64,000 nucleotides of DNA from an uncultured Bacteroidales bacterium (GCA_949300615.1 CASGEW010000010.1:391-64390); one strand, 5' to 3'. Counted from the first letter of the stretch, positions 4,601 through 47,472 are shown. Notes: generated by a model not told the origin, from the letters alone. A program made the numbers and translations.

Positions 4601-4789
4601 GAAAGCCGTTTGCGCCCTGTAATGATGGCCTCTTTAACGACCATTCTCGGGATGATACCGTTACTGAATGACCCCTTGTTTGGTTCGATGGCGGTTACCA
4701 TAATGGGTGGTCTGTTTTTTTCTACGTTGGCAACGTTGTTTTTTGTACCGGTGTTCTATGCAATGTTTTTCAAAATTAAAATAAAATGA
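1665..4789 (+). pseudogene. efflux RND transporter permease (AcrB/HAE1-like), frame broken by a 1-nt deletion in a T-run (true pseudogene or assembly error)
   Basis: Two overlapping ORFs (1665..3416 in frame 0, 3197..4789 in frame 2) together make about 1040 aa of RND pump. The frame-0 reading ...PFMRQGF continues in frame 2 as FPDMEYDQLYMEYKLPEG. A fifth T in the run at 3309-3312 restores GFFPDMEYDQ. Confidence 0.85.
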
Positions 4790-8446: not shown

Positions 8447-8558
8447 CGGAATCTTTTCTATATGGGGAAAGGCTGTTCTCGCTAAATTTTTGCTTTTGTA
8501 TCTCTCTTTGCCTGATATGGTAAAAAAACAATATGAAGCTTTTTGAGAAAGATGATGT

Positions 8559-8568
8559 TTTTATAACA
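8559..8568 (+). promoter_or_regulatory. TTTTATAACA motif copy upstream of phage-type locus A
   Basis: Exact 10-mer, 91 nt upstream of the ATG at 8659. The same 10-mer occurs twice in the portal/876-aa intergenic region. Confidence 0.3.
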
Positions 8569-8658
8569 TGGATGGAGGAACTATTTATGCTTGTTTTGCA
8601 TTGTCAATGGGAAATATGGTAAAAAACCATCTATTAAAAACTAATTAAAAAATAAGTT

Positions 8659-9426
8659 ATGGAAAATTTTATGGAACAGAATGACGAACGGGTACAAAAG
8701 ACTCCCCGTGAGTTGTTGCGTGAAAAATTGTTGCAGTACTATCCCGACCGGAAGGTGGAGTCGGACGATGACCTTTTCGATTTGCTTTGTGAGTACGACT
8801 CGCAGATCAGCAGTTGTTACAACCGTTTGAAAGATGGACAGTTGAAATTGGCTTACCTGTTTAACGAGCATCCCAGAGTGGGGGCCTTTATTTCGGATGT
8901 TGTGTCGGGCGATGACGCGTTGTTGGCTTGTGTCCGTCATTTCGGGAAAGAATTGTTGGAAAGCGGGAACGATTTTGACACGTTGGATCGGATTCGCCGC
9001 GAAGATATGATTTACCGCGAACGACGTATGCAGCAGCGGGCCATGGAGGAAGAACGGGAACAAAATTGGGAACGCAGCGAACGTATCATTGCGGCGTTCA
9101 AAACGCAGCATGGCTTGTCGGACGAGGTGTTCGATCGCTTTCTGGAAGAGGTGTACGATTTGGTGGAGAGTATCTTCATGGGTAAATTCTCCATGCGGAC
9201 ACTGGAACTCCTCTACCGGGGGATGAATTATGAGTCGGACATGATGCAGGCCGAGATGAATGGTGAGATACGGGGAAAGAATCAGCGGATTGTCCTGGAA
9301 CGGGAACGGGCTGCCGGCGATTCGGTGCCTTCGTTGCATAACCGTACTTCGGTCGGAGCTCTTGACGACGATGACAGATTACCTCTTGCCGGATATCGCC
9401 GACAACCTTCGGTGTGGGATTTATAA
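8659..9426 (+). CDS. putative capsid scaffolding protein
   Basis: 255 aa, highly charged and acidic, with helix-prone repeats (RREDMIYRERRMQQRAMEEEREQNWERSERI). It sits immediately upstream of the capsid-like gene. The call rests on position and composition only. Confidence 0.45.
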   Translation: MENFMEQNDERVQKTPRELLREKLLQYYPDRKVESDDDLFDLLCEYDSQISSCYNRLKDGQLKLAYLFNEHPRVGAFISDVVSGDDALLACVRHFGKELLESGNDFDTLDRIRREDMIYRERRMQQRAMEEEREQNWERSERIIAAFKTQHGLSDEVFDRFLEEVYDLVESIFMGKFSMRTLELLYRGMNYESDMMQAEMNGEIRGKNQRIVLERERAAGDSVPSLHNRTSVGALDDDDRLPLAGYRRQPSVWDL

Positions 9427-9475
9427 CAAGGCCTTTGGGTAAAATTCTATGTATAACTTTAATGATTAAACAAAC

Positions 9476-10861
9476 ATGAGAAAAAAAGTATTTCAGTTTT
9501 TGAAGTCGGAGAACTTTTTGCTTTTTGCATTGGCGCTGATAGCGATAGCTGTTAGCCTTTGTTCGAATGATGGCGTATTGGTTGCGGCTGTTTTTGCCGG
9601 AGCATCGGGTAGTAAGATTGTGTCGGGAGAGTCGCTGACAACCGATATCAGCCGGAGAGAAAGTCCGGACCTGTTGATGAATGAGGTGGATAATGTCATC
9701 ACGAAGATCCGTCCGTTGTCAACCCCGATTGATCAGATTTCGCGCGTGGCCAGAGCCCGCAAAAGCCAGTCGATGATTGTCGATTACTATTCGGTAGATG
9801 TGAAACCGAGCCGTACTACGGTAAAAACCGCTTATACGGAACCCGATAGCGAAGATGCTACGGCCAATGCTCAGCGGGTGAAACTGGCTACGGCCAACGA
9901 TGAAATTTTTGAAGTGTCCGAAACGTTGCTTTTGCCCGGATTGAAAGGTTACGAGGCTGATGGAACGACCTTGTCGAAGTCTGATTTGGTGTTGTATGTG
10001 TCGTCAAAAGATGAGGATGGGTCTATTTATGTCTATGCCATCAACGGGAAGAAAATCGGTACGATTGAAAATTGCGTGCCTTCGCTCTCGGCAGGACAGG
10101 CCATTATCCGAATGGGGCGTGCTGCGACCGAATTGGATGTACAGACCGGTCAGTTTGAGGCGTTGCCTGTCAAGGAGCAGAATTTCTGCCAGATTTTCAA
10201 AATGCAGATTGAAGAATCTACGTTGCAGAAAATTGCCAAAAAGAATGTTCCTTGGAGATTCTCGGATTCGGAAGAGGCTGCCATTTTCGATATGCGCCTG
10301 GGAATGGAGAAGACCTTTATGTTTGGTGTAAAACGTCAGATTTACGATGCCAAAAAGAAAGAGTCTGTTTACCTGACCGGAGGTATCTGGTGGCAGGCCG
10401 GTAAGGAGTATGAATACGATGCTTCGGCTGGATTTACCCAGAACGATTTGGTGGACATTATGAAAGAGGCCTTTACCGGGAATGGCGGTACGAAACGGAA
10501 AATGTTGGTGGGCGGATCGGATTTGATTGCCGCCATCAATAAAATGGAGATTACCAAGGTGATTAATGCCAGTGAAACCACGGCGGCATTCGGGATGGAT
10601 TTCACCCAGATCGTATCGAAATTCGGGAAACTGGGGGTTATCTTCTCAGAAGTCTTTGATGATTGCGGTATGTCCGGTTACGGATTTATCGTAGATCCCG
10701 ATTTGATCACCAAGTGGTCGCATATCCCGTTCGGGAAAGAGCAGCTTGACCTGAAAAAGGCCGGTATCCGAAATGTGGATGCTACGGTACTTACCGAAGC
10801 CAGCTGTTTGACGCTCCGTTATCCGGCGGCCCATATGCGTATCGTTCCCCAAGGAGCATAA
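9476..10861 (+). CDS. putative major capsid protein (HK97-fold type)
   Basis: 461 aa. Its position after the scaffold-like gene fits, as do motifs I associate with podoviral/HK97-like coat proteins (SPDLLMNEVDNVITKIRPLSTPIDQISR; GMEKTFMFGVKRQ; GGIWWQAGKEY). The N-terminal ~65 aa are unusually hydrophobic, so the start is uncertain. Confidence 0.65.
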   Translation: MRKKVFQFLKSENFLLFALALIAIAVSLCSNDGVLVAAVFAGASGSKIVSGESLTTDISRRESPDLLMNEVDNVITKIRPLSTPIDQISRVARARKSQSMIVDYYSVDVKPSRTTVKTAYTEPDSEDATANAQRVKLATANDEIFEVSETLLLPGLKGYEADGTTLSKSDLVLYVSSKDEDGSIYVYAINGKKIGTIENCVPSLSAGQAIIRMGRAATELDVQTGQFEALPVKEQNFCQIFKMQIEESTLQKIAKKNVPWRFSDSEEAAIFDMRLGMEKTFMFGVKRQIYDAKKKESVYLTGGIWWQAGKEYEYDASAGFTQNDLVDIMKEAFTGNGGTKRKMLVGGSDLIAAINKMEITKVINASETTAAFGMDFTQIVSKFGKLGVIFSEVFDDCGMSGYGFIVDPDLITKWSHIPFGKEQLDLKKAGIRNVDATVLTEASCLTLRYPAAHMRIVPQGA

Positions 10862-10902
10862 GCTGTTTGTCTGGGGCTTGTGATTGATTCTTTTTGAAAG
10901 GT

Positions 10903-10957
10903 CGGATTGCCCTGTATGTTTCATGTTGGTGAGAGATAGGGGGCAATCCGTTTCTTT
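10903..10957 (+). terminator. stem-loop plus T-rich tail after the capsid-like gene
   Basis: cggattgccc (10903-10912) pairs with gggcaatccg (10941-10950), followed by tttctttatt. Confidence 0.45.
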
Positions 10958-10971
10958 ATTATTAAAATGCA

Positions 10972-11361
10972 ATGTTTATGGATGATATAAAAATATATAC
11001 GACCCGCCATGGGAATTTAAGTATCCCTTTGTGCGTGGATGGCAAGCAAACCCGGATACGGTTTGTATCCAAAGATAACATAGTGGGGTTTTATGTTACC
11101 GCCGATAAGGCGATACAGCAGGCCGTAGAGTCGATACCGGCTTTCGGTACCAAAATTCAGTTGCAGGCGTCCGGTTACCGGCCTGCGGAGGAGATGGAGA
11201 TTCCGCTGGCTCCTGTCGAAGGTATTACCACGTGGCAGGCTGCCCGTGAATATTTGTGTAAGCCGCCCTATTCAGAGCCGAAAAGGGGACTGAATACGCC
11301 CGAAAAGATTCGTGCCCGAGCCAAAAAGCTGGGACTTTTCTTCCCAGAAATAAAAGAGTGA
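10972..11361 (+). CDS. hypothetical protein (virion module)
   Basis: 129-aa ORF with an ATG start, co-directional between the capsid-like and fibre genes. No motif recognised. Confidence 0.55.
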   Translation: MFMDDIKIYTTRHGNLSIPLCVDGKQTRIRFVSKDNIVGFYVTADKAIQQAVESIPAFGTKIQLQASGYRPAEEMEIPLAPVEGITTWQAAREYLCKPPYSEPKRGLNTPEKIRARAKKLGLFFPEIKE

Positions 11362-11387
11362 GTAGATTAATTTAAAAACAACCAGTT

Positions 11388-14300
11388 ATGCAATATTGTA
11401 ATTTACACGACCGTTCTAATGGATTGTTTCTGGGCTATTTCTCTATGTTGACCGAGGTGTTGAGTAAATATCCCGAAGGGGTACCGGAAGGTAGTTATTT
11501 CGTGAATGGCGAGACGTTGTCTATCTGGGTATGGAACGATGCGGAAAAAGAGTGGATGGATACGAATCGTCCCATGCAAAGCCCGTTGTCGGGTGTAGTG
11601 GATGACCCGGCAACATACCGTCCCGAGGTGGTCAAAGGGGTGAAGGCCTATTATTTGTATATTTCGCCGCCGGCGGACAATCTTTGTTTTGTCCATTTTG
11701 TCAATGGGGATGAACCCTTGCGGATAACGGTTGAACAATCGGCTGTTATCAGCCTGTTTTGGGACGGCGACTTTTGGCACGTGTATATCACTCCTGTTAA
11801 ATTGGAGGCGTTTCAAGCGGAGGCTTATACCGATTTTCGGTTTCAGCTGTCAACCTCGGAAGATACCCCTCCACAGGTGAATCGGCTTTCAGTTAATCCG
11901 GGGGAGGGTTGGGTGTCGCAAATCCCGGAATCTGGTGAAGGGTTGTTTTTGTGGATGATCAGCGCTAAGTTGGATGGTAACGGCGATTTTTGCGATGCCG
12001 AAACCGGCTGGTCGGCTCCTGTTCGTCTGACCGGGGACAAAGGTTCTACCGGCCCTAACGGAGAAAACAGCTATTGTATGGTGTTGAGCAACGACAGCCA
12101 TACGATTCCCTGTCAGAAAGATGGTTCTGGCGGTTATTACGACGGGGCTCATACTACGTGTTATGTCTTTGAGGGGAGCGTGGATATTTCGTCGCAATAT
12201 ACCTTCAACGTAATCGTTCCCGATGGAGTTGTATATACACTGGGAAACCAGAACCGTACGGTGGTGGTTTCCGATATGGAGGATGATTCGGCTACTATTA
12301 CCTTTATCGGCGAATGTCTGGATAAACCTACCTTGTTTAAAATATTTTCTTTGGCTAAAAGCAAACAGGGTTTCGACGGCGATCCGGCTGTAACGTATCG
12401 ACTTTCGGTGTCGGATATTGTTGTAAGGCAGACCTCGGCAGGGTTGAGGGTTCCCGAGCAGTTGACGGTGGAGTCTCTGGTCCAAACGGCCGGAGAAGTT
12501 CCGACTCTTTTCCCGGCATATTTTTTGGTAGAAGGAATAAAGGAAGACTCTTCTCGTACGACGTTGTTGTCAACCACCTCCCCGGTATCGTCAGTCTCTT
12601 TCCCGACGTTGTCTGAATACGACTCTTTTGAAATAACGTTGTATAAAGATTATACTGCGGAAGGAGGATTCCAGAACCGGTTGGATCGTGAGAATATACC
12701 GGTTTTATGCGATGGCGCTGACGGCGTAGGAAGTGTTGGTGCCGTGTTGAGGCCGCGCGGAGAGTGGAGTAATACCAAGATATACGGTTGTTTCGATGCG
12801 TACCGGGATGTGGTCATTTATGGGGAAGATCGAAAATATTATGTTGCCAAAGAGGGGATCGGTTCTATACCGGTGGGAACACTGCCTACCAATACCATTT
12901 ATTGGGAACCGTTTGACGATTACGAGAATATTGCTACCGGATTGTTGTTGGCCGATAACGCATATATCGACATTCTCGGGACGAGTGGTATTCGTATAGG
13001 CAATTACCCCAATTGTTGGGAGATGACGGCGGGAACAATTGTTCACCGGGTTTCTGGATTGTCTTTAACGGCTGATGGCGTATTGTCTGCCCCGGATGGT
13101 TTGCATATAAAGATTGGCAATAATACGATTGCCGATTTTACGGATCAAAAGATTCAAACTTCCGTAACAGAGGTAAAAAGTTATACGGATAATAAGGTTT
13201 CAGATCTACAAATCGGTGGCCGGAATCTATTACCCAACTCAAAAGATGTAAGCGATACGCCTACCTCTTTTGCGGTAGGATATTTGGCTGCATATAGAAA
13301 TTTAACGAGGACCTTAAACGCAGGCGAGACGGTTATTTTTTCATACAGCGGAGTAACATCGAATAGTATTGTTGGATTCGCTTTATATAGTTTAAATTCT
13401 TCCATAGATGTTTTTCCGGCGAATACTCCGGTAACGTTGACGAAGAGTTACGAGCATTTTCGAGTTAGAGTGTCCTCTTCGGCGGCTTTTGCCGCTGCTT
13501 ATATGAAGTTGGAAGTTGGTACAAAAGCAACGGATTGGTCGCCTGCCCCGGAGGATGTACAAGATGAGTTGGACGATAAAGTAGCTACGACGGTTTATAA
13601 TACTGGGATCACACAGTTACAAAGCAGCATTAATTCCAAAGTAAGCCAAACCGATTTCGATGCTTTGGGAAACCGCATCTCTGCGGTTGAAACGGAAATA
13701 ATCCAAACGCCTAATAAAATAACCCAGGCAATAAAGGAAACAAGTATAGGGGGCGATAATCTTCTACCCAATCTACAACAGCGGTGGGCACGAGGACGTT
13801 TTAATTCTTCAACAGGAGCTATTGAGGTGCCATCAGGTACAGGTTGGAGTTATGTGCGAATAAATATATACTGTGCAGAATTTTTCCCGGTAAACGGAGG
13901 AGAAACGCTGGTATTTTCAGCTCCGACGGATCATTCGTACACGTGTTTTCCTGCTCAGTATGATGCGAGCAAGACGTTTATACCTGTTGCACCAGAGCTT
14001 TATTATATGCGTAATTATTACGATGAAAATCAGCCTGATAATTTAAAGTTTTTAACGTTAAAGCCGCAAACGAGATACGTGCGTTGGCAGATACAATGTT
14101 CATACGGAAGCGAGACAGGAGATTTTTACCCATCTTGGTTTGAGACAAACCATGCACAAGTAGAGATAGGTACTAAGCCGTCGGCGTATAAGACGCCGTT
14201 TACCGATGTAACCTATACAGGTATTGATATACAGCAGGGAAAGATTTTTCTTACGTCCGACAAGGTAGAAATATCGGGTTCACTTATTGTCAAAGGTATC

Positions 14301-14864
14301 CAGAACGGAGGGATTAACGTAGGAGGAAACTGCATCATTACCAGTACGGGGTTGATTACTGCCAAAGGAGCGACCATCGAGGGGAAAATAACGGCAACGA
14401 GCGGAAGCATAGGAGGGGTAAGCATAAGCAATAGCCGTATAGGTATTGATTCAAGTAGCTCTACTGCTGTTGGCTCTTTCCTCGCTGCCGGATACTTAGG
14501 AGTAAGAAGTAAGGCCAATTATTTTCGGGTCGATGCGAATGACGCAGAGTTACAATGTACGATAAACAAGCAAAGCGACACAACACCCTGTATAGATATT
14601 AAGAATACATCTACATCCGGCGGGTCAACGGCTGCAACAGCCATCCGGGCGTTCGGTAAAAACGAGTTATACGGAGGAGTTCAAATTATAACGGCAAATG
14701 CAACGCTAATAGACGATGCTGCTCCTAAAATAGAGGTAACCCGAACCGATTTAAAAGTAACGTTGCGATATAATAATACCGGAACGTATGTAACCGGCTA
14801 TTTAAGGATAACATCATCACCGGCAACCGGAGGAGCTGCGACAGTACAATTTGTAAGAGACTAA
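11388..14864 (+). CDS. tail fibre / receptor-binding protein
   Basis: 1158 aa. It has a short collagen-like run GDKGSTGPNGEN (12033-12068). Two tandem modules each start IGG(R/D)NLLPN and end (K)LE(V/I)GTK..., the first continuing into the DWSPAPED motif common in prophage fibres, and are separated by a coiled-coil-like spacer. The C-terminal segment is Gly/Ser/Thr/Ile-rich. Confidence 0.7.
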   Translation: MQYCNLHDRSNGLFLGYFSMLTEVLSKYPEGVPEGSYFVNGETLSIWVWNDAEKEWMDTNRPMQSPLSGVVDDPATYRPEVVKGVKAYYLYISPPADNLCFVHFVNGDEPLRITVEQSAVISLFWDGDFWHVYITPVKLEAFQAEAYTDFRFQLSTSEDTPPQVNRLSVNPGEGWVSQIPESGEGLFLWMISAKLDGNGDFCDAETGWSAPVRLTGDKGSTGPNGENSYCMVLSNDSHTIPCQKDGSGGYYDGAHTTCYVFEGSVDISSQYTFNVIVPDGVVYTLGNQNRTVVVSDMEDDSATITFIGECLDKPTLFKIFSLAKSKQGFDGDPAVTYRLSVSDIVVRQTSAGLRVPEQLTVESLVQTAGEVPTLFPAYFLVEGIKEDSSRTTLLSTTSPVSSVSFPTLSEYDSFEITLYKDYTAEGGFQNRLDRENIPVLCDGADGVGSVGAVLRPRGEWSNTKIYGCFDAYRDVVIYGEDRKYYVAKEGIGSIPVGTLPTNTIYWEPFDDYENIATGLLLADNAYIDILGTSGIRIGNYPNCWEMTAGTIVHRVSGLSLTADGVLSAPDGLHIKIGNNTIADFTDQKIQTSVTEVKSYTDNKVSDLQIGGRNLLPNSKDVSDTPTSFAVGYLAAYRNLTRTLNAGETVIFSYSGVTSNSIVGFALYSLNSSIDVFPANTPVTLTKSYEHFRVRVSSSAAFAAAYMKLEVGTKATDWSPAPEDVQDELDDKVATTVYNTGITQLQSSINSKVSQTDFDALGNRISAVETEIIQTPNKITQAIKETSIGGDNLLPNLQQRWARGRFNSSTGAIEVPSGTGWSYVRINIYCAEFFPVNGGETLVFSAPTDHSYTCFPAQYDASKTFIPVAPELYYMRNYYDENQPDNLKFLTLKPQTRYVRWQIQCSYGSETGDFYPSWFETNHAQVEIGTKPSAYKTPFTDVTYTGIDIQQGKIFLTSDKVEISGSLIVKGIQNGGINVGGNCIITSTGLITAKGATIEGKITATSGSIGGVSISNSRIGIDSSSSTAVGSFLAAGYLGVRSKANYFRVDANDAELQCTINKQSDTTPCIDIKNTSTSGGSTAATAIRAFGKNELYGGVQIITANATLIDDAAPKIEVTRTDLKVTLRYNNTGTYVTGYLRITSSPATGGAATVQFVRD

Positions 14865-14885
14865 ACACTAAAAACAGACAAAACA

Positions 14886-15155
14886 ATGAAACTGAATTTA
14901 AAAGAGTTGCCCGTCGAAGTATCGCCTGACGGCACGATAGAAAACAGAGATGTCCGCACACAGATGGGCAATCTGCTGTGGAACTTTTCGCAAGACATTG
15001 CCCTTTCCGACGTCGGGAGGGAGATTTACCGCAGCGAGGGTGAGATCGAGGTGGCCGATGTATATCGGGAGGGAATCGAAGACCTGGTAAAACGATCAAC
15101 CTTTTTTGCCCCCGTCAAGCGGGCCATATTGAAACAACTTAATACTAACCCATAA
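14886..15155 (+). CDS. hypothetical protein (virion module)
   Basis: 89-aa ORF with an ATG start, 21 nt after the fibre stop. Confidence 0.5.
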   Translation: MKLNLKELPVEVSPDGTIENRDVRTQMGNLLWNFSQDIALSDVGREIYRSEGEIEVADVYREGIEDLVKRSTFFAPVKRAILKQLNTNP

Positions 15156-15176
15156 AAAGAATAGGAGGAATAAATC

Positions 15177-15500
15177 ATGTTAGAAAAAATCAAAACCACC
15201 GTAACCGTAGAAGCGCGAAAAGAGACCGATAACGCGTTGTATCAGTTGAACTATTCGGTCGTGGATAATAGCTTGACGTCTATAAACTGTTCGGTCAATA
15301 AAAAGACTGTTGTACAGGTAGATGCCCCCGAGGGGCAACAATTTGCCGAACAACAGGTGTATGCCGGCAACGTCTATCTGACGAACGGGCACATTACCTG
15401 TTCCATTCCGCAGGGGAATGACGCTACCGCTTATATGGCCGATTTTATGGCGATGGTTGAAGAGATCGAGAGCGACATCGAGACTGAAATCTCAGCATAA
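15177..15500 (+). CDS. hypothetical protein (virion module)
   Basis: 107-aa ORF with an ATG start preceded by aggagg, with an acidic C-terminus. Confidence 0.5.
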   Translation: MLEKIKTTVTVEARKETDNALYQLNYSVVDNSLTSINCSVNKKTVVQVDAPEGQQFAEQQVYAGNVYLTNGHITCSIPQGNDATAYMADFMAMVEEIESDIETEISA

Positions 15501-15527
15501 ACAGCAAAGGAATAAGGAGACGAAGCG

Positions 15528-16154
15528 ATGAAAATCAGTACAGAAGAGTTGAAAAATCTGGTCAAGACCGATATGGAGGAGCTCTCGCCCCAGTGGGAGA
15601 GTGAGGTGTTGCAGACCGACGCCATCGGGATAGAGCGGTATATCGAGACGAAACTGCCCGAGGCCATTCGGCAGGTTTTGTTGTCGGTTTCTCCCAGTAT
15701 GCTGGAAGCCGTTCCGTTCGATGCTGCGCTTTTGCCCCAGAAAAACCAGGATGGCAGCGGTATCGTCCCTCTTCCCGAGGATTGGATGAAGATGGTTTCG
15801 TTCAAGATGAAAGGGTGGAACCGTCCGGTAACCGAGTTCCTTGCCGAGGAGGATCCGCTTGCCATTCGCCAGCAGAATCTCTTTTTGCGGGGCGGTAGTC
15901 TCAAACCGGTTTGTGTGATAGGGCATACCCCCGAGGGCATTTTGTCGCTGTTCTATTATTCGTTACCTGCCTATGTGCGGGTGCATGAGATAGAGCAGGC
16001 GCTCTACCTGCCCTTGCCCAAAGAGGTGGATGGGGCGTACGATTTTCCCCGTCGGTTGATGCCGGAGGTTTGTTACGTGTGTGCCGCTTTGGTGTACGAT
16101 ATTCTGGGACGTCCCGATATGGCAGCCGTGATGAGAGAGCGTGTAACCCTTTAA
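15528..16154 (+). CDS. hypothetical virion protein (possible head-tail adaptor)
   Basis: 208-aa ORF. The pattern LPEDWMKMVSFKMKGWNRPVTEF...PLAIRQQNLFLRGGSLKPV resembles connector/adaptor-type proteins of Bacteroides phages as I recall them. The functional call is weak. Confidence 0.4.
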   Translation: MKISTEELKNLVKTDMEELSPQWESEVLQTDAIGIERYIETKLPEAIRQVLLSVSPSMLEAVPFDAALLPQKNQDGSGIVPLPEDWMKMVSFKMKGWNRPVTEFLAEEDPLAIRQQNLFLRGGSLKPVCVIGHTPEGILSLFYYSLPAYVRVHEIEQALYLPLPKEVDGAYDFPRRLMPEVCYVCAALVYDILGRPDMAAVMRERVTL

Positions 16155-16167
16155 AAATGTTTTTGAT

Positions 16168-16557
16168 ATGACACGATTGAGTTATTATTATGGATTGAAA
16201 GCAGCTATGAAGGATTATCCCGAGGGGGGGATGGCCGGCGACTGTTTCGTCAATGGCGAGACCTGCTCTATCTGGATGTGGGACCCCGTTTGCCGGGAAT
16301 GGACCGATACCAACCGTCCGTTGCAAAGCCCCTTGGCGGGGTTGATTATTGATGCGGCCACATTCTGCCCTTCGGTACATCCCGGCGTTCGGTGCGTATA
16401 TCTGTTCGTTTCGGGTACGGGCGGGACATTCGAGTTTCCCTATTTCCGCAACGAGGATATACCGTTGAAGGTGGTGTTGTCGGGACCGTCTCAGGTTTGG
16501 TTGTATTGGAACGGCGACAATTGGGAGGTACAGGTAATCCCTTCGGTTGCCGAGTAG
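16168..16557 (+). CDS. fibre N-terminal-domain paralog (stand-alone 129-aa protein)
   Basis: By my eye alignment it matches residues ~20-150 of the 1158-aa fibre at roughly 40-45% identity: DYPEGGMAGDCFVNGETCSIWMWD..REWTDTNRPLQSPLAG versus KYPEGVPEGSYFVNGETLSIWVWN..KEWMDTNRPMQSPLSG. Confidence 0.7.
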   Translation: MTRLSYYYGLKAAMKDYPEGGMAGDCFVNGETCSIWMWDPVCREWTDTNRPLQSPLAGLIIDAATFCPSVHPGVRCVYLFVSGTGGTFEFPYFRNEDIPLKVVLSGPSQVWLYWNGDNWEVQVIPSVAE

Positions 16558-16571
16558 TGTAGAACCGATGC

Positions 16572-16628
16572 CGGGGAGCAAATTTCCGAGATGAGGTAAA
16601 CCGGTGTTTACGGGCGGTTTGCTCCCCG
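16572..16628 (+). terminator. nested stem-loop between the structural and lysis genes
   Basis: cggggagcaaa (16572-16582) pairs with tttgctccccg (16618-16628). An inner hairpin gtaaac/gtttac lies at 16596-16611. It is followed by acattttatt. Confidence 0.4.
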
Positions 16629-16649
16629 ACATTTTATTCATGTACGGAT

Positions 16650-17105
16650 ATGACGAAATTATTTATTACGATTGTTTTCCCCGTGTGGGCGTTGTCGGCG
16701 CAAGAGGGGTTGAGAGTGTTTCTTTTGCCGTTGTGGCCGATGTATGTTTTGTTTGCGGCATTGGTGCTGGCCGATTTACGTCTGGGGGTACGTGCAGCCC
16801 GTCTTCGTGGCGAGGTGGTACGCCGCAGCCGGGCGTGGCGACGGACACTGTCGAAATATATCGACTATTGTTGTGTGGTAACGGCGTGTAAGATGTTCGA
16901 CGATTTTATCGTTTCGCAGTACAGCGTGCCGTTGGTTTACATTTCGTTTTGTTTGGTGTTGGCATGGGTGGAGTTGGATTCGGTGTTTTCCAACTTCGGC
17001 GAGTTGCACGGCATCAATGTCTTGAAAGCTGTCAAGCAGTTTATAAATGAGAAAATATCGATTGATTTACCCGAAAAAGAAGATAGAAGAGATGCAGATA
17101 AGTGA
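16650..17105 (+). CDS. phage holin-family membrane protein
   Basis: 151 aa with several hydrophobic helices. The motif LADLRLGVRAARLRGEVVRRSRAWRRTLSKYIDYCCVV resembles the holin_4_1-type family. It lies directly upstream of, and overlaps, the endolysin gene. Confidence 0.65.
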   Translation: MTKLFITIVFPVWALSAQEGLRVFLLPLWPMYVLFAALVLADLRLGVRAARLRGEVVRRSRAWRRTLSKYIDYCCVVTACKMFDDFIVSQYSVPLVYISFCLVLAWVELDSVFSNFGELHGINVLKAVKQFINEKISIDLPEKEDRRDADK

Positions 17106-17490
17106 ACATTTTTCGATGGACGAGTTTTGTATAAGCGATACGGCCAAGCGGCTTGGTATCGCCAATTTGCCCGACCAGGAGGCATCCGAATCGTTGGTTT
17201 ATCTGGTTCGGAACTTGCTCGAACCCTTGCGTCGGGCGTACGGGAAGCCCCTACACATAAACAGCGGCTACCGTTGTCCGGCCCTGAACCGGGCGGTGGG
17301 AGGCGTCTCCTCTTCCCAGCATTTGAAAGGAGAGGCGGCCGATATTTCGTGCGACGATCCGGTTGCGTTGTTGCAGCAGTTGCGCCAGACGGAGCTTGTC
17401 TTTGATCAGGCCATTCTTTACCCTACGTTTTTACATGTGTCGCTTCGCCGTCAGAATAACCGGCAGCGTATTATCATCAAAAAAAAATAG
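17092..17490 (+). CDS. peptidase M15-family (D-Ala-D-Ala carboxypeptidase-like) endolysin
   Basis: MQISEHFSMDEFCISDTAKRLGIAN...INSGYRCPALNRAVGGVSSSQHLKGEAADI carries the H..D...H zinc-peptidase M15A pattern. I prefer the ATG at 17092, which overlaps the holin stop by 14 nt, to the ATG at 17047 given in the track. Confidence 0.8.
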   Translation: MQISEHFSMDEFCISDTAKRLGIANLPDQEASESLVYLVRNLLEPLRRAYGKPLHINSGYRCPALNRAVGGVSSSQHLKGEAADISCDDPVALLQQLRQTELVFDQAILYPTFLHVSLRRQNNRQRIIIKKK

Positions 17491-23610: not shown

Positions 23611-23643
23611 CGACCAAAACTTTTCTTAATTATCTGTAAAAGG

Positions 23644-23678
23644 GGCTGTCTGACGTAAGTCGGGTGGCCTCTTTTTTT
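23644..23678 (+). terminator. intrinsic terminator of the ROK kinase gene
   Basis: The RNA stem GGCUGUCUGAC-GUAA-GUCGGGUGGCC has 11 bp including G-U pairs, followed by UCUUUUUUU. Confidence 0.7.
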
Positions 23679-23707
23679 GTAGGATTCTCCCAAATAGAGA
23701 GACATCG

Positions 23708-23716
23708 CCCCCCCCC
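23708..23716. repeat. C9 homopolymer tract in the terminase 5' region
   Basis: cgCCCCCCCCCgcgggg; it sits inside the palindrome ccccgcgggg, 95 nt upstream of the ATG at 23811. Confidence 0.9.
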
Positions 23717-23754
23717 GCGGGGAGTTTCTGTTTTTTTCTCATGTTGCCGGGTTG

Positions 23755-23762
23755 TCATAACA
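23755..23762 (+). promoter_or_regulatory. degenerate copy (TCATAACA) of the TTTTATAACA motif
   Basis: It matches 7 of the last 8 positions of the 10-mer (8 of 10 overall). It lies 49 nt upstream of the terminase ATG. Confidence 0.2.
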
Positions 23763-23810
23763 TCGGGATAAGAACCGTTTTTCGTTTTTTTGTCTGTAAA
23801 TGATAAGGAA

Positions 23811-25814
23811 ATGAAAGATGTTGATATAGAAAATATTATAAAAGAAAACAATCGTAGGTTGTCGGTTTTGTCCGAGGTATATGATCCCGTATCGGGAGAA
23901 GGTTGTTATGGCAAGGAGCGTCTTGTTTTATCTTTGTCCGACGCACCGATCCCCCGGCAGTACATCCCGGTAAAGATGGCACAGGAGTCAATCCTGATAC
24001 AACAGTTGCTGTGTACGGGCTCCATCGGAGAATATGTATCGAGCGTGTTGGAACACCCTGATGGAGAATCAATCCGGGAACAGGTCTGGAAAAAGATTGT
24101 AGAAACCCGTATCCGTTACGATTTCGAGTTCTGGGCGGCAATGTTCGTCGAGATAAAAGACAAGCAGAGCGATAGCGATATCCCTTTTGTTTTGAATCGT
24201 CCCCAACGGCGGTTGTTGGCATCGTTCGAGCAGATGAGAGAGCAGGAGAAACCCATCCGAGTCGTTCTTCTGAAAGCCCGTCAGTGGGGCGGTTCGACGC
24301 TGGTGCAAATCTATATGGCGTGGATACAGCTGGTACACCGTCGGAACTGGAACAGCGTGATTTGTGCCCATCTCAAAGACAGTGCCGCCAATATCAAGGG
24401 GATGTATGCCAAGCTGTTAGAGCGTTATCCGCCGTGGTTGCTGGGTACGGACGGGCCGGTAAAATTCCATCCTTACGAACGCAGTGTCAATACCTCAGTC
24501 ATTAAACAAACCGGATGCCGGGTAACGATCGGATCGGCCGAAACGCCCGAGTCGATACGGGGGGCCGACGCTGTTATGGCCCATTTGTCGGAGGTGGCCT
24601 TTTGGCCCCGTACCCGGCAAAAGTCGCCCGAACAGTTGATCCGTTCCGTTTGCGGGTCGGTAGCCTTGTTGCCCTATTCCGTCGTTGTGCTGGAAAGTAC
24701 GGCCAACGGTACGGGGAACTATTTCCACCGTGAGTGCGAACGGGCCAAACGGGGCGAAAGCGACAAACAGTTTCTCTTTGTCCCGTGGTATGAAATAGAG
24801 ATGTATTCCTCACCGATAGCAGATTACGAAGCCTTCATCGAGGCAATGGATGATTATGAACATTTCCTGTGGGAGCAGGGGGCCACACTCGAAGCCATAC
24901 ACTGGTACCGGCAGAAACGGAGGGAGTATCCCGAGCACGCCGACATGATGGCAGAATATCCGTCAGACGATGTAGAGGCCTTTACCTATTCGGGCGAGCG
25001 GGTGTTCGACGTCAAACAGGTACAGCGTTTGCGTAAAAACTGCATCGACCCTGAGTTTGTCGGGGAGGTATATGGCCGGGCGTCGCACGGGAAAGAGGCG
25101 TTGGAAGATTTGAAATTCAGCGCCGAGCCGGGAGGGTTGTTGGCTGTTTGGTCGATGCCTGCCGACGAACACAACGTACGGGACCGTTACGTTACCGTAG
25201 TCGATATCGGGGGACGTTCCTGTAAAGCCGACTATTCGGTTATCGTCGTCTTTGACCGTTACTGGATGATGTTTGGCGGAGTGCCTGAAATCGTGGCGCA
25301 GTGGCGCGGGCATACCGACCACGACCTGTTGGCATGGAAAGCCGTTCAGATAGCCTCGTTTTACCATCGCTCCCTGTTGGTGATAGAGAGTAACACCCTG
25401 GAAACAGAAAATACCGATGGCGAACATTCCGAATATATTCTCGATACCATCGCCTCGGTCTATGACCGGCTGTATGCCCGGGCCACCGCAGGACAGATTC
25501 GGGAAAACCTACCCACCCGTTGGGGATTTCACATGAACCGTTCTACCAAGACGTTGATTATCAACCATCAGATCAATATGTTGCGAGAGAACGGATACAT
25601 TGAACGCGACCTGTTGGCCTGTTACGAGCACGATGTGTTTGAAAAGAAACCGAACGGCAGTTTCGGGGCCATGGACGGGCATCACGACGATGTGCTGATA
25701 ACCCGTTGCATAGGCAATTATGTATGTTATACCGAGCCGTTGCCCGCGTTTGTTGCTGAACGGGAAAAGAAAAAAGAGAATCCCGGATTTCCCGTGAGCG
25801 AGGCCTCTTTTTGA
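23811..25814 (+). CDS. phage terminase large subunit (locus B, stand-alone)
   Basis: The track ORF starts at a TTG (23790); the first ATG is at 23811. It has an ATPase motif LLKARQWGGSTLV (terminase Walker-A-like K-x-R-Q-x-G-x-S). Its nuclease-type acidic motifs are YVTVVDIGGRSCKADYSVIVVFD and GHHDDVLITRCIG. Length about 667 aa. Confidence 0.75.
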   Translation: MKDVDIENIIKENNRRLSVLSEVYDPVSGEGCYGKERLVLSLSDAPIPRQYIPVKMAQESILIQQLLCTGSIGEYVSSVLEHPDGESIREQVWKKIVETRIRYDFEFWAAMFVEIKDKQSDSDIPFVLNRPQRRLLASFEQMREQEKPIRVVLLKARQWGGSTLVQIYMAWIQLVHRRNWNSVICAHLKDSAANIKGMYAKLLERYPPWLLGTDGPVKFHPYERSVNTSVIKQTGCRVTIGSAETPESIRGADAVMAHLSEVAFWPRTRQKSPEQLIRSVCGSVALLPYSVVVLESTANGTGNYFHRECERAKRGESDKQFLFVPWYEIEMYSSPIADYEAFIEAMDDYEHFLWEQGATLEAIHWYRQKRREYPEHADMMAEYPSDDVEAFTYSGERVFDVKQVQRLRKNCIDPEFVGEVYGRASHGKEALEDLKFSAEPGGLLAVWSMPADEHNVRDRYVTVVDIGGRSCKADYSVIVVFDRYWMMFGGVPEIVAQWRGHTDHDLLAWKAVQIASFYHRSLLVIESNTLETENTDGEHSEYILDTIASVYDRLYARATAGQIRENLPTRWGFHMNRSTKTLIINHQINMLRENGYIERDLLACYEHDVFEKKPNGSFGAMDGHHDDVLITRCIGNYVCYTEPLPAFVAEREKKKENPGFPVSEASF

Positions 25815-25821
25815 ACCGCTT

Positions 25822-25842
25822 GCCGGTGTCGGCTGTTTTTTT
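25822..25842 (+). terminator. weak stem plus T7 after the terminase gene
   Basis: A 4-bp stem (gccg-gtgt-cggc) followed by tgttttttt. Confidence 0.3.
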
Positions 25843-25878: not shown

Positions 25879-25886
25879 TATTTTTG
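25879..25886 (+). promoter_or_regulatory. -7 box TATTTTTG for copA
   Basis: Matches TAnnTTTG, 34 nt upstream of the ATG at 25920. Confidence 0.5.
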
Positions 25887-45370: not shown

Positions 45371-47359
45371 TTATTGGGATATTTCCGACGGCATATGGGT
45401 TACTGGCGAAAGTACAGTGTTCGGCTGTGCCGTTTGTCCGTTTGCGTTGTTCGGTATCCCGTAACCGTTTGCCATAGCCTGTTGTTGGTTTAACAGTTCC
45501 TGTTGCATCTTTTCCTTTACCTGCTGTATACTTTGCAACAAGCGGTCGGCAAAGGGGAAAGAACCGTTTTCGAGCAGCATTTCCAGTGAGATCTGTCCCA
45601 TCCGGAACAGCTCCATCAACAGCTCGTTCGATGCCATCCGGTAGGTAGGGTTGGTGCTCGATTCGCAGATTGAGAGGTCGAACTCCACATCCCGAACCTT
45701 TTGCGGGTTGTACATTTTCGCCTCTTTGTCATATACACTTCCGGCGATGTTCAGATAACGGGCTTCTCGATAGAATTGTTGAACCGTTTTCATCACCTTG
45801 GTATCCCGTTCTTCCCGGAACGATTTGAACGATTCAAACAGGTCGATTAAGTTCAAGCTCGAATTTTGAGTCTGTTGCGCATACAATACCCCCGAGGTAA
45901 CGGTCGTAGCGACTTTCCCCTGCATGGCCCCGTGGATACCCGATATATCTTCTATCAGGCGTAATTGCAAATTGAGCAGTTCGTATGCCCCCACGTTGGT
46001 AGCATTGGTCGAGATCTGTTGAGGCAGTACCCCGCCGGGTTTGGGCTTAAACAGGATAATACCGTTGTACCGTGTCCACTGTTCGGCCACATCTTCAATA
46101 GACATCCCGTCCGGAATCTGGTCTTCCGGGAAAAGCAGCACCCCTTTGGCGCTGGCCCCCATGATAAAGTCGATCAAGGTTATCAGTCGGTTGATATAAC
46201 GCTGTTGGTCGATAATATCCTCTACAAACGAATGTATCTCACCGTCCATCAACGGGTAGAGTTTAAAGACGTACGGATGTTCCCCGTGCCAGTAGGGAGT
46301 CTCCCCTTCGTCCAGAGTATGGCCGAAAGGGGTAAAAAAACGGTAATACCAATAGCGGTCTATAAACCACTCGGTTTCAATCAGCGCTACCTTCTCCGGA
46401 GCAATGCCTTTTTGTGCGGCTTCCTCCAAGCGCATCCGGTTTATCGCCTCTATCTCCTGCATCCGTTCCATCTCCTCTTTGTAATAATCTCCGGTTAACG
46501 TATCGTGGCAGCGCAGACGCTCTTTGTTTTCAAGCGTCCATACCTCGATGATACGGCACAAATGGGGCTCGGTGGCGATTAAAAAATCGAGGTTGTCGAG
46601 GTTGTCCGATGTCAGCGCCTCAAACGATCGGGAAATCTCTTCGCGGGTAGCCTGATTATACAGCTCCCGGAGCTGTTTGGCCCTGCGGCGCGAACCTTTG
46701 GCAAACTTGCTGACCACATCGGCAATCGGCACGTCGTGCAGTTCGCCTATTAAAGTACAGTCCCAAAGTCGAACATCCTCCATCGCGTTGAAAAATACGC
46801 GGTTCGGGTTTACGACATCCACCCAGACATCCATCCGGTTGTTTCGCCACCCGTATCCTATTTTGTGGAAGCACGTTCCCGAGACGACAAACTCTTCCAT
46901 CGTCCGGCCGTCTATTTCCCAGAGGTGGTTCATCTGGTAAACGTATTGCATGGCCACGCTCATCATCTCGCCCGCTTTCTGTTCTTCCCGGTCGCGGGAT
47001 ATGCAGACCGGTTCGGTTTGTACGTTGCGGAACTGTCCGACGATGTTCTTTACCATCTGGCGCACCAGGTTGTTTTTGAGCGGAATCTTTCCTTGCTCTT
47101 TGAGGTATTGTTCTTCGGTAATGGTGCGGCCGTCAGGAGTTTCGATTTTATCGTTCCATTGTTTGCCGAAGGTATAGTTCCGGCTGCGGCAGCGTTTCTT
47201 CCGAAAATGTTCGATGTTGTCCCAGGCACGTTTGGCTTGGAGCAGAACGTCGAGATGCGATCTGTCCAAATCGAACGTCTCATCCGTACGGTTCCTTTTT
47301 TGTTTGCCTAAGGAGCTGTCATTCCCTTCCGTAGAGAAATTAATTTCTGTCTTTTCCAT
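45371..47359 (-). CDS. phage portal protein
   Basis: The track start at 47368 is a TTG; the ATG at 47359 gives MEKTEINF.... Length is ~662 aa. The N-terminal pattern AKRAWDNIEHFRKKRCRSRNYTFGKQWND (Y-x-x-G-x-Q-W), overall size and Gln/Asn-rich C-terminal tail resemble podoviral portals. Confidence 0.7.
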   Translation of the reverse strand: MEKTEINFSTEGNDSSLGKQKRNRTDETFDLDRSHLDVLLQAKRAWDNIEHFRKKRCRSRNYTFGKQWNDKIETPDGRTITEEQYLKEQGKIPLKNNLVRQMVKNIVGQFRNVQTEPVCISRDREEQKAGEMMSVAMQYVYQMNHLWEIDGRTMEEFVVSGTCFHKIGYGWRNNRMDVWVDVVNPNRVFFNAMEDVRLWDCTLIGELHDVPIADVVSKFAKGSRRRAKQLRELYNQATREEISRSFEALTSDNLDNLDFLIATEPHLCRIIEVWTLENKERLRCHDTLTGDYYKEEMERMQEIEAINRMRLEEAAQKGIAPEKVALIETEWFIDRYWYYRFFTPFGHTLDEGETPYWHGEHPYVFKLYPLMDGEIHSFVEDIIDQQRYINRLITLIDFIMGASAKGVLLFPEDQIPDGMSIEDVAEQWTRYNGIILFKPKPGGVLPQQISTNATNVGAYELLNLQLRLIEDISGIHGAMQGKVATTVTSGVLYAQQTQNSSLNLIDLFESFKSFREERDTKVMKTVQQFYREARYLNIAGSVYDKEAKMYNPQKVRDVEFDLSICESSTNPTYRMASNELLMELFRMGQISLEMLLENGSFPFADRLLQSIQQVKEKMQQELLNQQQAMANGYGIPNNANGQTAQPNTVLSPVTHMPSEISQ

Positions 47360-47413
47360 ATAAATCAAAAGATTAAATATTTTCTGTGTTGCAAATAACG
47401 GGAATGTTGAGTC

Positions 47414-47472
47414 CGATCTTATGTTATAAAATAAGAATCGAGCGCTCCGGCTTCGATCTTGATTTTATAACA
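47414..47472. promoter_or_regulatory. imperfect palindrome / repeat array in the divergent portal-876aa control region
   Basis: The arms tgttataaaa (47422-47431) and ttttataaca (47463-47472) are exact reverse complements. The 7-mer cgatctt occurs at 47414-47420 and 47454-47460, with a near-inverted aagaatcg at 47433-47440. Confidence 0.4.

Follow-up and report, generated by a model that had tools for sequence, protein, structure and literature searches.

A stand-alone phage large-terminase gene and its dispersed partners in a gut Bacteroidales chromosome: a candidate domesticated phage-head system

The window analysed here, a term we use for the whole 64,000-nt stretch of DNA, comes from an uncultured Bacteroidales bacterium (GCA_949300615.1 CASGEW010000010.1:391-64390) and is numbered from its first letter. 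Its plus strand carries a 2.0-kb open reading frame (ORF) that automatic calling runs from a TTG codon at 23790 to 25814 (674 aa). Because the close homologues are all 667 aa long, the true start is almost certainly the in-frame ATG at 23811, giving a predicted protein of 667 aa with its stop at 25814. On the profile matches, fold and motifs described below, this ORF is a real, full-length phage large terminase (TerL), and it is this gene, together with the phage-derived genes dispersed around it, that is the subject of this report. TerL lies between a ROK sugar kinase gene (ending at 23610) and copA (starting at 25920), with the portal gene 19.6 kb away. The features of the gene and of its immediate flanks are as follows.

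23811..25814, plus strand: TerL large terminase, 667 aa, with an N-terminal extension, an ATPase domain and an RNase-H-like nuclease domain (PHROG_2, T4 gp17 profile, fold, >7,400 homologues)
24273..24299, plus strand: deviant Walker A, K155-A-R-Q-W-G-G-S-T163, aligned to T4 gp17 SRQLGKTT
24576..24593, plus strand: deviant Walker B and catalytic Glu, M-A-H-L-S260-E261, aligned to T4 gp17 MIYIDE
25203..25205, plus strand: nuclease Asp465 (VVDIGGRS), invariant column
25386..25388, plus strand: nuclease Glu526 (VIESNT), invariant column
25680..25691, plus strand: HHDD with D626/D627, third nuclease acidic site, aligned to T4 gp17 GYHDDLVMS and to the RB49 nuclease domain
23638..23677, plus strand: intrinsic terminator ending the ROK kinase transcript (17-bp stem, 4-nt GUAA loop, U7 tail)
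23727..23810, plus strand: TerL 5' region travelling with the gene (pairwise alignment with sister species locus L085)
25822..25842, plus strand: weak hairpin GCCG/CGGC plus T7 between TerL and copA (4-bp GC stem; no better than shuffles)
25879..25886, plus strand: copA -7 promoter box TATTTTTG, exact TAnnTTTG, 34 nt before the copA ATG

The PHROG_2 terminase large subunit family matches residues 129-650 of TerL (E 2.9e-20), and a profile of 11 sequences from the family finds T4 gp17 across its ATPase as well as its nuclease domain, at ~14% identity. An AlphaFold model of TerL was made from an 11-sequence alignment (mean pLDDT 66.6) and serves fold assignment, not active-site geometry; its top solved relatives in Foldseek are T4 gp17 (E 1.4e-13), the T7 and HK97 TerL proteins and the RB49 gp17 nuclease domain (TMt 0.74). 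Pfam gave no match to TerL even at E-values up to 1.

The ATPase and nuclease motifs that a first-pass annotation of this DNA had reported lie where it placed them and are invariant in the family, but the ATPase motifs are not canonical. In the alignment with T4 gp17, the canonical GK(S/T) lysine of the gp17 Walker A (K166) faces G161 of TerL and Lys155 opens the loop instead, while the P-loop Arg-Gln is common to both proteins. The phage lambda gpA P-loop, which we take to be KSARVGYS, resembles this arrangement with the Lys at the start of the loop. Within the Walker B motif, gp17 D255 stands opposite S260, and the catalytic glutamate is kept (gp17 E256 opposite E261). KARQWGGST is invariant in 85 relatives, phage BF1-TP2 (46% identity) among them, and Walker B reads HL(S/T)E in nearly all of the 85, phages included, with HCTE in two. 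Since these deviations are kept across 85 relatives that include isolated temperate Bacteroides phages, the non-canonical Walker A and B are, on this alignment, family traits and not decay, and the form of Walker A is compatible with the predicted ATPase function. The nuclease acidic residues D465, E526 and D626/D627 are likewise invariant alignment columns in the relatives. Alignment to TerL families had been proposed in the first-pass annotation, and in the alignment we ran the catalytic motifs are kept in the family-wide form.

TerL stands alone in the window, as had been claimed: ROK and copA are its neighbours, the 200-nt spacer upstream of TerL holds no ORF and no small-terminase-like ORF is adjacent. 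The intrinsic terminator that had been proposed upstream was borne out by RNA folding (dG -23 kcal/mol, z -2.96, none of 200 shuffles equally stable), which revealed a structure that a simple promoter/terminator pattern scan had overlooked; with its A-tract and T-tract flanks this terminator could act both ways. A second GC hairpin with a T-run at ~23708-23722 was considered and rejected, as it is not above shuffles (z 0.38). The downstream "T7-tailed stem" did not hold up as a terminator: its 4-bp stem is present, but the region scores z +0.53 against shuffles, and the insulation of TerL from copA is plausible. The predicted copA -7 box, TATTTTTG, is an exact match to TAnnTTTG. The description of TerL as an "insulated monocistronic unit" therefore stands as to its strong upstream terminator and its own conserved 5' region and is weakened on the downstream side. 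That 5' region of ~85 nt contains TGTCATAACA (23753-23762) and the -7-like TTTTTTTG (23785-23792) and is conserved with the 84%-identity sister species (L085) despite a different upstream gene, which supports TerL as an independent transcription unit. As a separate observation, copA is split in the window into overlapping ORFs (25920-27443 and 27373-28134), and two other assemblies of the same species have it as one 741-aa gene; the split is due to a frameshift, which is an assembly error or else marks a strain-specific pseudogene.

Further phage-derived genes lie in the window to both sides of TerL.

8659..17490, plus strand: partner genes of locus A (Pfam and PHROG matches; gene order colinear with viral contigs)
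8659-9426, plus strand: orf255 (phrog_22323; PHROG match)
9476-10861, plus strand: SU10-type major capsid protein (PF17236 SU10_MCP; Pfam match)
between the capsid gene and orf1158, plus strand: orf129a, matching phage BF1-TP2
11388-14864, plus strand: tail-like protein orf1158, 1158 aa, in locus A
between orf1158 and the holin gene, plus strand: orf208 (phrog_22135; PHROG match; also matches BF1-TP2), then orf129b
16650-17105, plus strand: holin
ending at 17490, plus strand: M15 endolysin
45371..47368, minus strand: P22-type portal (PF16510, E 5.6e-41; 44% identical to the BF1-TP2 portal)
47529..50159, plus strand: orf876, an 876-aa virion-protein-like protein (phrog_32516, PHROG E 2.5e-89; weak internal-virion-protein matches)

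The phage-like cluster that contains locus A spans 8.6-21.0 kb and is closed by two large unassigned ORFs, orf623 and orf586; its last ORF ends at 21034, 2.8 kb upstream of TerL. This distance and the 19.6 kb to the portal agree with the first-pass figures of 2.8 and 19.5 kb. TerL, the portal, the capsid protein, orf208 and orf129a all match phage BF1-TP2, and host genes (mscL, fabI, ROK, copA, alaS, murF-alr, GH43, MatE and others) are interleaved with the phage parts. Of the long window ORFs compared with Pfam, none showed an integrase or replication domain, and the 64-kb window lacks tRNA genes; head, packaging, tail-like and lysis genes are chromosomal here, and no phage regulatory, integration or replication genes were found near them in the 64 kb scanned. 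Beyond the right end of the window, ~10 kb seen in another assembly of the same species hold housekeeping genes only (mreBCD, pbp2, rodA, purA, fur). The layout of a compact prophage, with capsid operon, TerL and portal side by side together with regulators and integration functions, does not occur in the window. The capsid protein is 98% identical to one of Candidatus Gallibacteroides avistercoris, and the window is, judging by its proteins, from a close relative of that organism; Ca. Gallibacteroides is filed by NCBI under Bacteroidaceae incertae sedis, and all our comparisons put it beside Coprobacter and Barnesiella.

Two of the locus A products are hypervariable within the species. Compared with another assembly, orf1158 and orf623 (17497-19368) are 69% and 93% identical, with ratios of nonsynonymous to synonymous substitution rates (dN/dS) of 0.35-0.46, while TerL, orf208 and M15 are 99-100% identical in the same comparison. 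Such hypervariability is the pattern that would be expected of receptor-binding proteins. The ORF at the end of locus A, orf586 (19274-21034), has a lipoprotein-like start (...FTTSC) and overlaps orf623 by ~95 nt; it is without a family match and could be phage-derived or a host lipoprotein.

The TerL family is large, with more than 7,400 database matches and with relatives in at least 590 stretches of species-representative genomes and at least 597 stretches of IMG/VR viral contigs. We mapped the window proteins onto 80 genome loci and 80 IMG/VR loci (numbered with the prefix L), viewing 10 kb on each side of the homologue; most of the sequences come from metagenome-assembled genomes (MAGs), and taxon labels are the submitters'. 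The compact genome loci, with 44-51% identity to the window TerL, carry orf208, capsid and orf255 on the strand opposite to TerL, followed by TerL itself and mostly by the portal, all within ~5 kb around TerL, as in BF1-TP2; their hosts are labelled Bacteroides, Phocaeicola, Prevotella, Alistipes, Butyricimonas, Parabacteroides, Porphyromonas and some Muribaculaceae. Among the IMG/VR loci, 69 of 80 have a capsid gene and 66 of 80 a portal gene within 10 kb of TerL, and the best viral TerL, among at least 597 IMG/VR relatives, is 57% identical to that of the window. Stand-alone loci are found in Coprobacter, Caccoplasma, Barnesiella and unnamed relatives (57-84% identity) and in most Muribaculaceae (~50%). 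None of the 24 Barnesiellaceae-type and none of the 19 Muribaculaceae-type loci has a capsid gene within 10 kb of TerL, and the portal is found at that distance in four Barnesiellaceae-type loci only.

A neighbour-joining tree (100 bootstraps, MAG-derived sequences) groups the Barnesiellaceae-type TerL proteins in one clade (98%), the Muribaculaceae-type proteins in another (100%) and both in a joint clade (96%). This joint stand-alone clade is nested in phage diversity, its sister being the compact viral contigs L098-L100 together with a 3-kb genome contig, L028. Host families are intermingled in the compact clade, where, for example, one locus from Muribaculaceae and one from Butyricimonas are 95% identical; the stand-alone clade tracks host taxonomy. 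Judging from layout and tree, members of the stand-alone clade have lost the phage-type compact arrangement of capsid, TerL and portal. One MAG, RGIG9116, holds a stand-alone TerL (L051, 60%) as well as a second, partial TerL (L066, 55%) that has a portal gene beside it, along with an orf876-like gene; the two could be domesticated and phage-type copies that co-exist, or a binning artefact.

The strength of selection on TerL was gauged from pairwise Nei-Gojobori (NG86) estimates, in which dS is saturated between genera. In all 20-odd pairs with unsaturated dS, which differ by 0.7% to ~20% of their amino acids, TerL dN/dS is 0.04-0.1, compared with 0.02 for secA, 0.013 for fabI, 0.03-0.07 for copA and 0.04 for alaS. 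Purifying selection holds TerL as tightly as it does housekeeping genes. In the comparison of L005 with L008 the dS of TerL (0.30) is close to that of the portal (0.28), orf876 (0.29) and the host DUF4919 gene (0.31), and within the window's species TerL dS is 0.07-0.10, with values from 0.01 to 0.43 for ROK, fabI, copA and alaS. The composition of TerL is also that of a host gene (GC 0.52, third-position GC 0.61, codon adaptation index 0.79 against the window's host genes, like alaS and fumarase), and a recent horizontal acquisition was considered and rejected on this host-like composition.

Gene order points the same way. The ROK-TerL-copA order is kept within the species and the TerL-copA order in the 84%-identity sister species, the arrangement of fumarase and orf255-capsid is kept in Coprobacter, and DUF4919-portal-orf876 is kept in four Caccoplasma/Coprobacter-type loci (L003, L005, L007 and L008). 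One Muribaculaceae genome has a near-solitary capsid gene between surA and a cation-efflux gene. Identities to Coprobacter are 68-70% for the capsid protein and 69-71% for TerL, and Muribaculaceae-labelled capsids are 56-65% identical among the matches listed, versus ~50% for TerL. Taken together, the clades that follow the hosts (96-100% support), the dS equal to that of host flanks and the synteny across species and genera indicate that TerL co-diverges with its flanking host genes and appears to have been inherited vertically across two families. The first-pass proposal of selection on function despite lost synteny thus gains support from the dN/dS of 0.04-0.1, the invariant motifs, the 96% clade, and the host-like dS and codon usage.

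The dispersed phage-derived units also share a sequence upstream. The 10-mer TTTTATAACA has exactly three copies in the 64 kb, both strands considered, each correctly oriented upstream of a phage-derived unit.

8559..8568, plus strand: exact TTTTATAACA before the orf255-capsid operon, 91 nt before orf255
9419-9428: one-mismatch copy of TTTTATAACA before the capsid gene, ending 48 nt before the capsid ATG
47431, minus strand: exact TTTTATAACA before the portal gene, 54 nt upstream
47463: exact TTTTATAACA before orf876, 57 nt upstream
47422..47472: 20-nt inverted repeat in the divergent spacer between portal and orf876 (85% complementary, 11-nt spacer), each arm holding TTTTATAACA aimed at its own gene

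Besides providing two promoter elements, the inverted repeat between portal and orf876 may serve as an operator. Upstream of TerL, TGTCATAACA is a two-mismatch copy of TTTTATAACA that ends 49 nt before the ATG, and the sister species has TATTATAACA at the same place. In the window the 10-mer is trailed, at a distance of 22-25 nt, by a T-rich, -7-like element, and on this reading of the sequences we place the 10-mer in the -33 region of a putative promoter. Of the gene starts examined, nine of 31 in host genes have an exact Bacteroides-type -7 box (TAnnTTTG) in front of them and none of the 12 in the phage-derived loci does (orf623 and orf586 counted), numbers too small for firm statistics. In the sister loci L085, L092 and L094 the sole exact copy of TTTTATAACA lies upstream of the F1 operon described below, while Caccoplasma/Coprobacter-type loci use a related 10-mer, ATTTGATAAA: all three exact copies in L003 stand before TerL and on both sides of the portal-orf876 spacer, and a single exact copy stands before TerL in L004, L006 and L009 and before orf876 in L005 and L008. 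This distribution suggests a dedicated promoter class that co-varies across dispersed loci in each lineage, that is, a regulon, and the shared 10-mer, as a possible link of TerL to the other two loci (A and C), lends support to a comparison with gene transfer agents (GTAs). In three loci from rabbit-gut MAGs (Lapin), exact TTTTATAACA occurs just upstream of a conserved ORF of ~100 aa, F9 (L004 8823, L006 13431, L009 13449); F9 also lies downstream of TerL in L003, L005, L007, L008 and L021 and may be a further member of the system. A direct repeat before orf255, ATATGGTAAAAAA(A/C)CA (8515-8530 and 8614-8629; 99 nt apart), was rejected as a shared element, being absent at TerL and in the portal-orf876 spacer; with up to two mismatches, ATATGGTAAAAAA has six matches in the window versus 0.8 expected.

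A small terminase was searched for, and a candidate was found in relatives and none in the window. An ORF of 83-90 aa is present in 23 related Barnesiellaceae-type loci (examples are L082 9668-9919 and L085 3380-3652, with 21 further loci), directly upstream of TerL in most, and in Barnesiella-type loci it abuts or overlaps the TerL start. Its product has conserved cysteines and the consensus ...ILxLCYxRLxELIPECTSEVNLLKCIEILEK...IADTLDRLAALR; the family is narrow (147 database matches) and has no Pfam, PHROG, NCBIfam or PADLOC match. By size and position this protein is a candidate small terminase or packaging accessory. A six-frame search of the window with a hidden Markov model of the family returned a best E of 0.61, and we regard the ORF as absent there. 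Upstream of the small ORF, relatives carry a divergent three-gene operon encoding proteins of ~800 aa, ~185 aa (F6) and ~180 aa (F1), as in L082 6058-9543, L085 1-3284 and L092 930-4475; the ~800-aa protein weakly matches phrog_14770, a family of a 3,427-aa phage protein. Neither the F1-F6-big operon nor the small ORF was found in the window or in the ~10 kb to its right.

In L085 and L021 the small ORF stays beside F1, away from TerL, and in the sister species ~6 kb of host genes (3-keto-disaccharide hydrolase, ssb, CNNM-family, acpS and FKBP) part the small ORF and F1 operon from TerL. Because the sister species keeps the small ORF with F1 and apart from TerL, a rearrangement in this lineage has cut TerL from its usual upstream partner. 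The claim that TerL "sits alone" is thus true of the window but not of most related genera, where the small ORF precedes TerL and the divergent operon faces it. As a further observation, the sister species has three small minus-strand ORFs directly upstream of TerL (L085 8201-9594; L092 12681-14592) for which the window has no counterpart; two of them match PHROGs without an assigned function, and one resembles rhomboid proteins in L092 and L094, a likeness shared by gp59 of BF1-TP2. Away from the phage-derived genes, an AcrB-type RND transporter (1665-4789) is present as two ORFs of 583 aa and ~458 aa; the same split is found in two independent assemblies and is probably real rather than an error.

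On these data we think it likely that TerL does its work within a domesticated phage-head system. With less assurance, though still as the reading we favour, TerL would be a dispersed component of an old domesticated phage-head system of the Barnesiellaceae-type/Muribaculaceae lineage, with GTA-like packaging of host DNA included. That the system is an ancient true GTA, whose particles deliver DNA between cells in mammalian and avian guts, is a tentative proposal that we hold at somewhat below even. Its history is put forward just as tentatively: a phage with an SU10-type capsid and a genome of the 64-68 kb type may have been domesticated before the Barnesiellaceae-type/Muribaculaceae split. 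It is also possible, on the same cautious footing, that its genes were then scattered to single-gene loci and tied together as a regulon by a lineage-specific promoter element.

Under the favoured reading TerL would be made together with the capsid, portal, tail-like and lysis genes through the common promoter element (TTTTATAACA here, ATTTGATAAA in the sister lineage). It would dock on portal-bearing procapsids and pump DNA in by ATP hydrolysis, and its RNase-H-like nuclease would make headful-type cuts. The particles would carry host DNA and be released by holin/endolysin lysis. We assign the procapsid to the capsid protein, orf255 and portal, the tail and virion to orf1158 and orf876, and lysis to holin and M15. 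Host DNA is the presumed cargo because no integrase or replication module and no recognisable linked small terminase was seen in the sequence covered, and because an element-specific packaging signal or an excisable genome presumably does not exist.

Several points weigh against this reading. The system is known here from genes alone, and our view covers 64 kb plus ~10 kb to the right in another assembly, so that a second terL or a complete prophage could lie elsewhere; RGIG9116 indeed holds a stand-alone TerL plus a second TerL beside a portal. The Walker A and B motifs are non-canonical, and what speaks for activity is only that isolated phages carry them too. The upstream 10-mer common to the loci is short and AT-rich, and it is off at two positions before TerL. 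The trees are neighbour-joining trees on MAG-derived sequences with taxon labels as deposited, and dN/dS is pairwise NG86 with dS saturated between genera. Finally, the three loci span 41.5 kb, less than the 64-68 kb of related phage genomes, and one headful could in principle carry them; the GTA hallmark of being unable to package its own genes is thus not obvious in this species, although self-packaging is made less likely by the lack of the F1/small-ORF locus and by the wider scatter of the genes in other genera.

Other readings of the same genes differ in what they keep of the particle. The dispersed head genes may be functional while the particle serves another end, such as phage interference, killing or delivery, or disposal or export of DNA, and all of the evidence for domestication fits this equally well. 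Phage interference would be aimed at infecting relatives of the ancestral phage, to which Muribaculaceae and other Bacteroidales are still exposed. Related compact prophages occur in Muribaculaceae hosts (L053, L058, L077), RGIG9116 has two TerL genes, and the hypervariability of orf1158 and orf623 (dN/dS 0.35-0.46) beside a 99% identical TerL is a receptor-binding or arms-race pattern. Hypervariable tail proteins fit a GTA too, however; no protein matches any PADLOC defence model, and the packaging motor, intact nuclease, portal and lysis genes that have been kept are what DNA-filled, released particles need. We consider a particle with another purpose rather unlikely. If instead TerL alone had been recruited as a cellular ATP-dependent DNA translocase or nuclease for repair, defence or chromosome processing, with no capsid work, one could understand why Muribaculaceae and several Barnesiellaceae loci have no capsid or portal gene within 10 kb, why the window has lost the linked 83-90 aa ORF and why its copy of the shared motif is degenerate. 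Yet capsid identities parallel those of TerL (68-70% versus 69-71% to Coprobacter), the dS of portal and orf876 equals that of TerL, a motif related to the one at capsid and portal stands at the same distance from the TerL start, and in L003, L005, L007 and L008 TerL is 1.5-2.3 kb from DUF4919-portal-orf876; this makes a purely cellular role improbable.

A TerL that supplies packaging in trans to a satellite, a defective prophage or some other mobile element elsewhere in the genome would have a selfish function; the genome is visible to us in part, and Bacteroidales often carry compact members of this phage family. Against this, TerL and the capsid locus keep fixed sites beside host genes across species and genera, dS matches that of the flanks, and a mobile partner would leave it unexplained why the clades are taxonomically coherent, each limited to a single host lineage. 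We regard such a partner as very improbable. Hardly credible, in our estimate, is that TerL is the leftover of a decaying prophage split by rearrangements and intact by chance or recency. TerL has indeed been parted from its usual neighbours, the adjoining copA is frameshifted in this assembly, a sign of some damage in the assembly or strain, and no Pfam or NCBIfam model recognises TerL, but a leftover would not be expected to show a dN/dS of 0.04-0.1 over amino-acid divergences from 0.7% to above 30%, catalytic columns that are all invariant, a clade spanning two families (96-100% bootstrap), fully host-like codon usage and a conserved promoter region that moves with the gene.

The favoured reading of a dispersed, domesticated phage-head system would matter in several respects. 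If the system is a true GTA, it would be the first in Bacteroidota, possibly with a headful much larger than those of classical GTAs. Muribaculaceae and Barnesiellaceae are major gut commensals of mice, humans and poultry, and particles that carry DNA would equip them with an intrinsic means of horizontal gene transfer, in a phylum whose gene exchange is as yet credited mainly to conjugative elements and true phages. In a transductomics preprint, Muribaculaceae DNA made up ~19% of the murine virus-like-particle fraction, with no mechanism named; a system of this kind might account for part of the bacterial DNA in gut virus-like-particle fractions. More generally, lone phage genes amid housekeeping genes need not be prophage debris. 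NCBIfam and PADLOC have no match for TerL, portal, capsid, orf876, orf1158, orf255, orf208, orf623, orf586 or the small ORF, and on that account the system has no curated name and a defence role has no sequence support. Since Pfam and NCBIfam are blind to TerL, and NCBIfam to all the phage-derived proteins tested, standard annotation, like the programs that look for prophages or GTAs, would probably overlook the system. With a lineage-specific motif to look for and hosts that can be cultured (Coprobacter fastidiosus, Barnesiella, Muribaculum), the hypothesis lends itself to direct tests.

Our literature search found no report of a GTA or domesticated phage head for Bacteroidales, Muribaculaceae or Barnesiella/Barnesiellaceae, and nothing relevant on domestication of DUF5309/SU10 capsids or on orphan terminases; a dispersed, family-level phage-derived system in gut Bacteroidales is apparently undescribed. 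Its nearest isolated relatives are the temperate Bacteroides phages BF1-TP2, BKO1-TP3 and BS-TP4 (PQ571263, PQ571269, PQ571277), from a collection of isolated or induced phages (Liu et al. 2025, PMC12694917). Their TerL proteins belong to the same family, with 45-46% identity over 96-99% of the length and the same Walker and nuclease motifs, and the group shares the SU10-type capsid, portal, orf208 and orf129a with the window. Unlike the window, these phages have a contiguous genome of 64-68 kb in which the capsid operon and portal are adjacent, small ORFs lie upstream and the regulators Rha, Ant and XRE are present, whereas TerL in the window is a single gene with partners 2.8 and 19.6 kb off among housekeeping genes. 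The phage clade, moreover, mixes host families where the stand-alone clade follows host taxonomy.

The resemblance to T4 gp17 (PDB 3CPE, 3EZK) lies in the ATPase and RNase-H-like nuclease domains, the P-loop Arg-Gln, the Glu after Walker B and the HDD motif; the differences are the ~14% identity, the replacement of Lys166 by Gly and of Asp255 by Ser, and an extra N-terminal region of ~125 aa in the window TerL.

Like the known GTAs (RcGTA and other alphaproteobacterial GTAs, BaGTA, VSH-1, Dd1 and VTA), the genes in the window are chromosomal, phage-derived structural, packaging and lysis genes at several loci, vertically inherited as far as the trees suggest, under purifying selection and without integrase or replication genes close by. 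In sequence they are unrelated to these GTAs: the capsid in the window is SU10/DUF5309-type and the portal P22-type, of the 64-68 kb phage lineage. The RcGTA head genes are, we assume, a Phage_capsid-type capsid and a Phage_portal-type portal in Pfam terms. Membership of the RcGTA lineage is ruled out by the PF17236 SU10_MCP capsid and the PF16510 P22_portal, which mark an independent phage lineage. The system in the window also differs in being more dispersed, with single-gene loci, in belonging to the phylum Bacteroidota and in being known here from genes alone. General properties of GTAs are summarised in PMC12946183 and PMC11841831. The former describes FpGTA of Faecalibacterium (Nat Commun 2026, PMC12946183), which like the present system has a gut commensal as host; FpGTA consists of one 10.5-kb operon in which a small-terminase candidate lies adjacent, and its packaged host DNA was seen by nanopore sequencing (PMC12946183). 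The element in the window, by contrast, is distributed over several loci and is known from its genes, and no small-subunit gene adjoins its TerL. By descent, the closest known systems are the BF1-TP2-like phages and their IMG/VR relatives, and by way of life they would be the GTAs, FpGTA among them.

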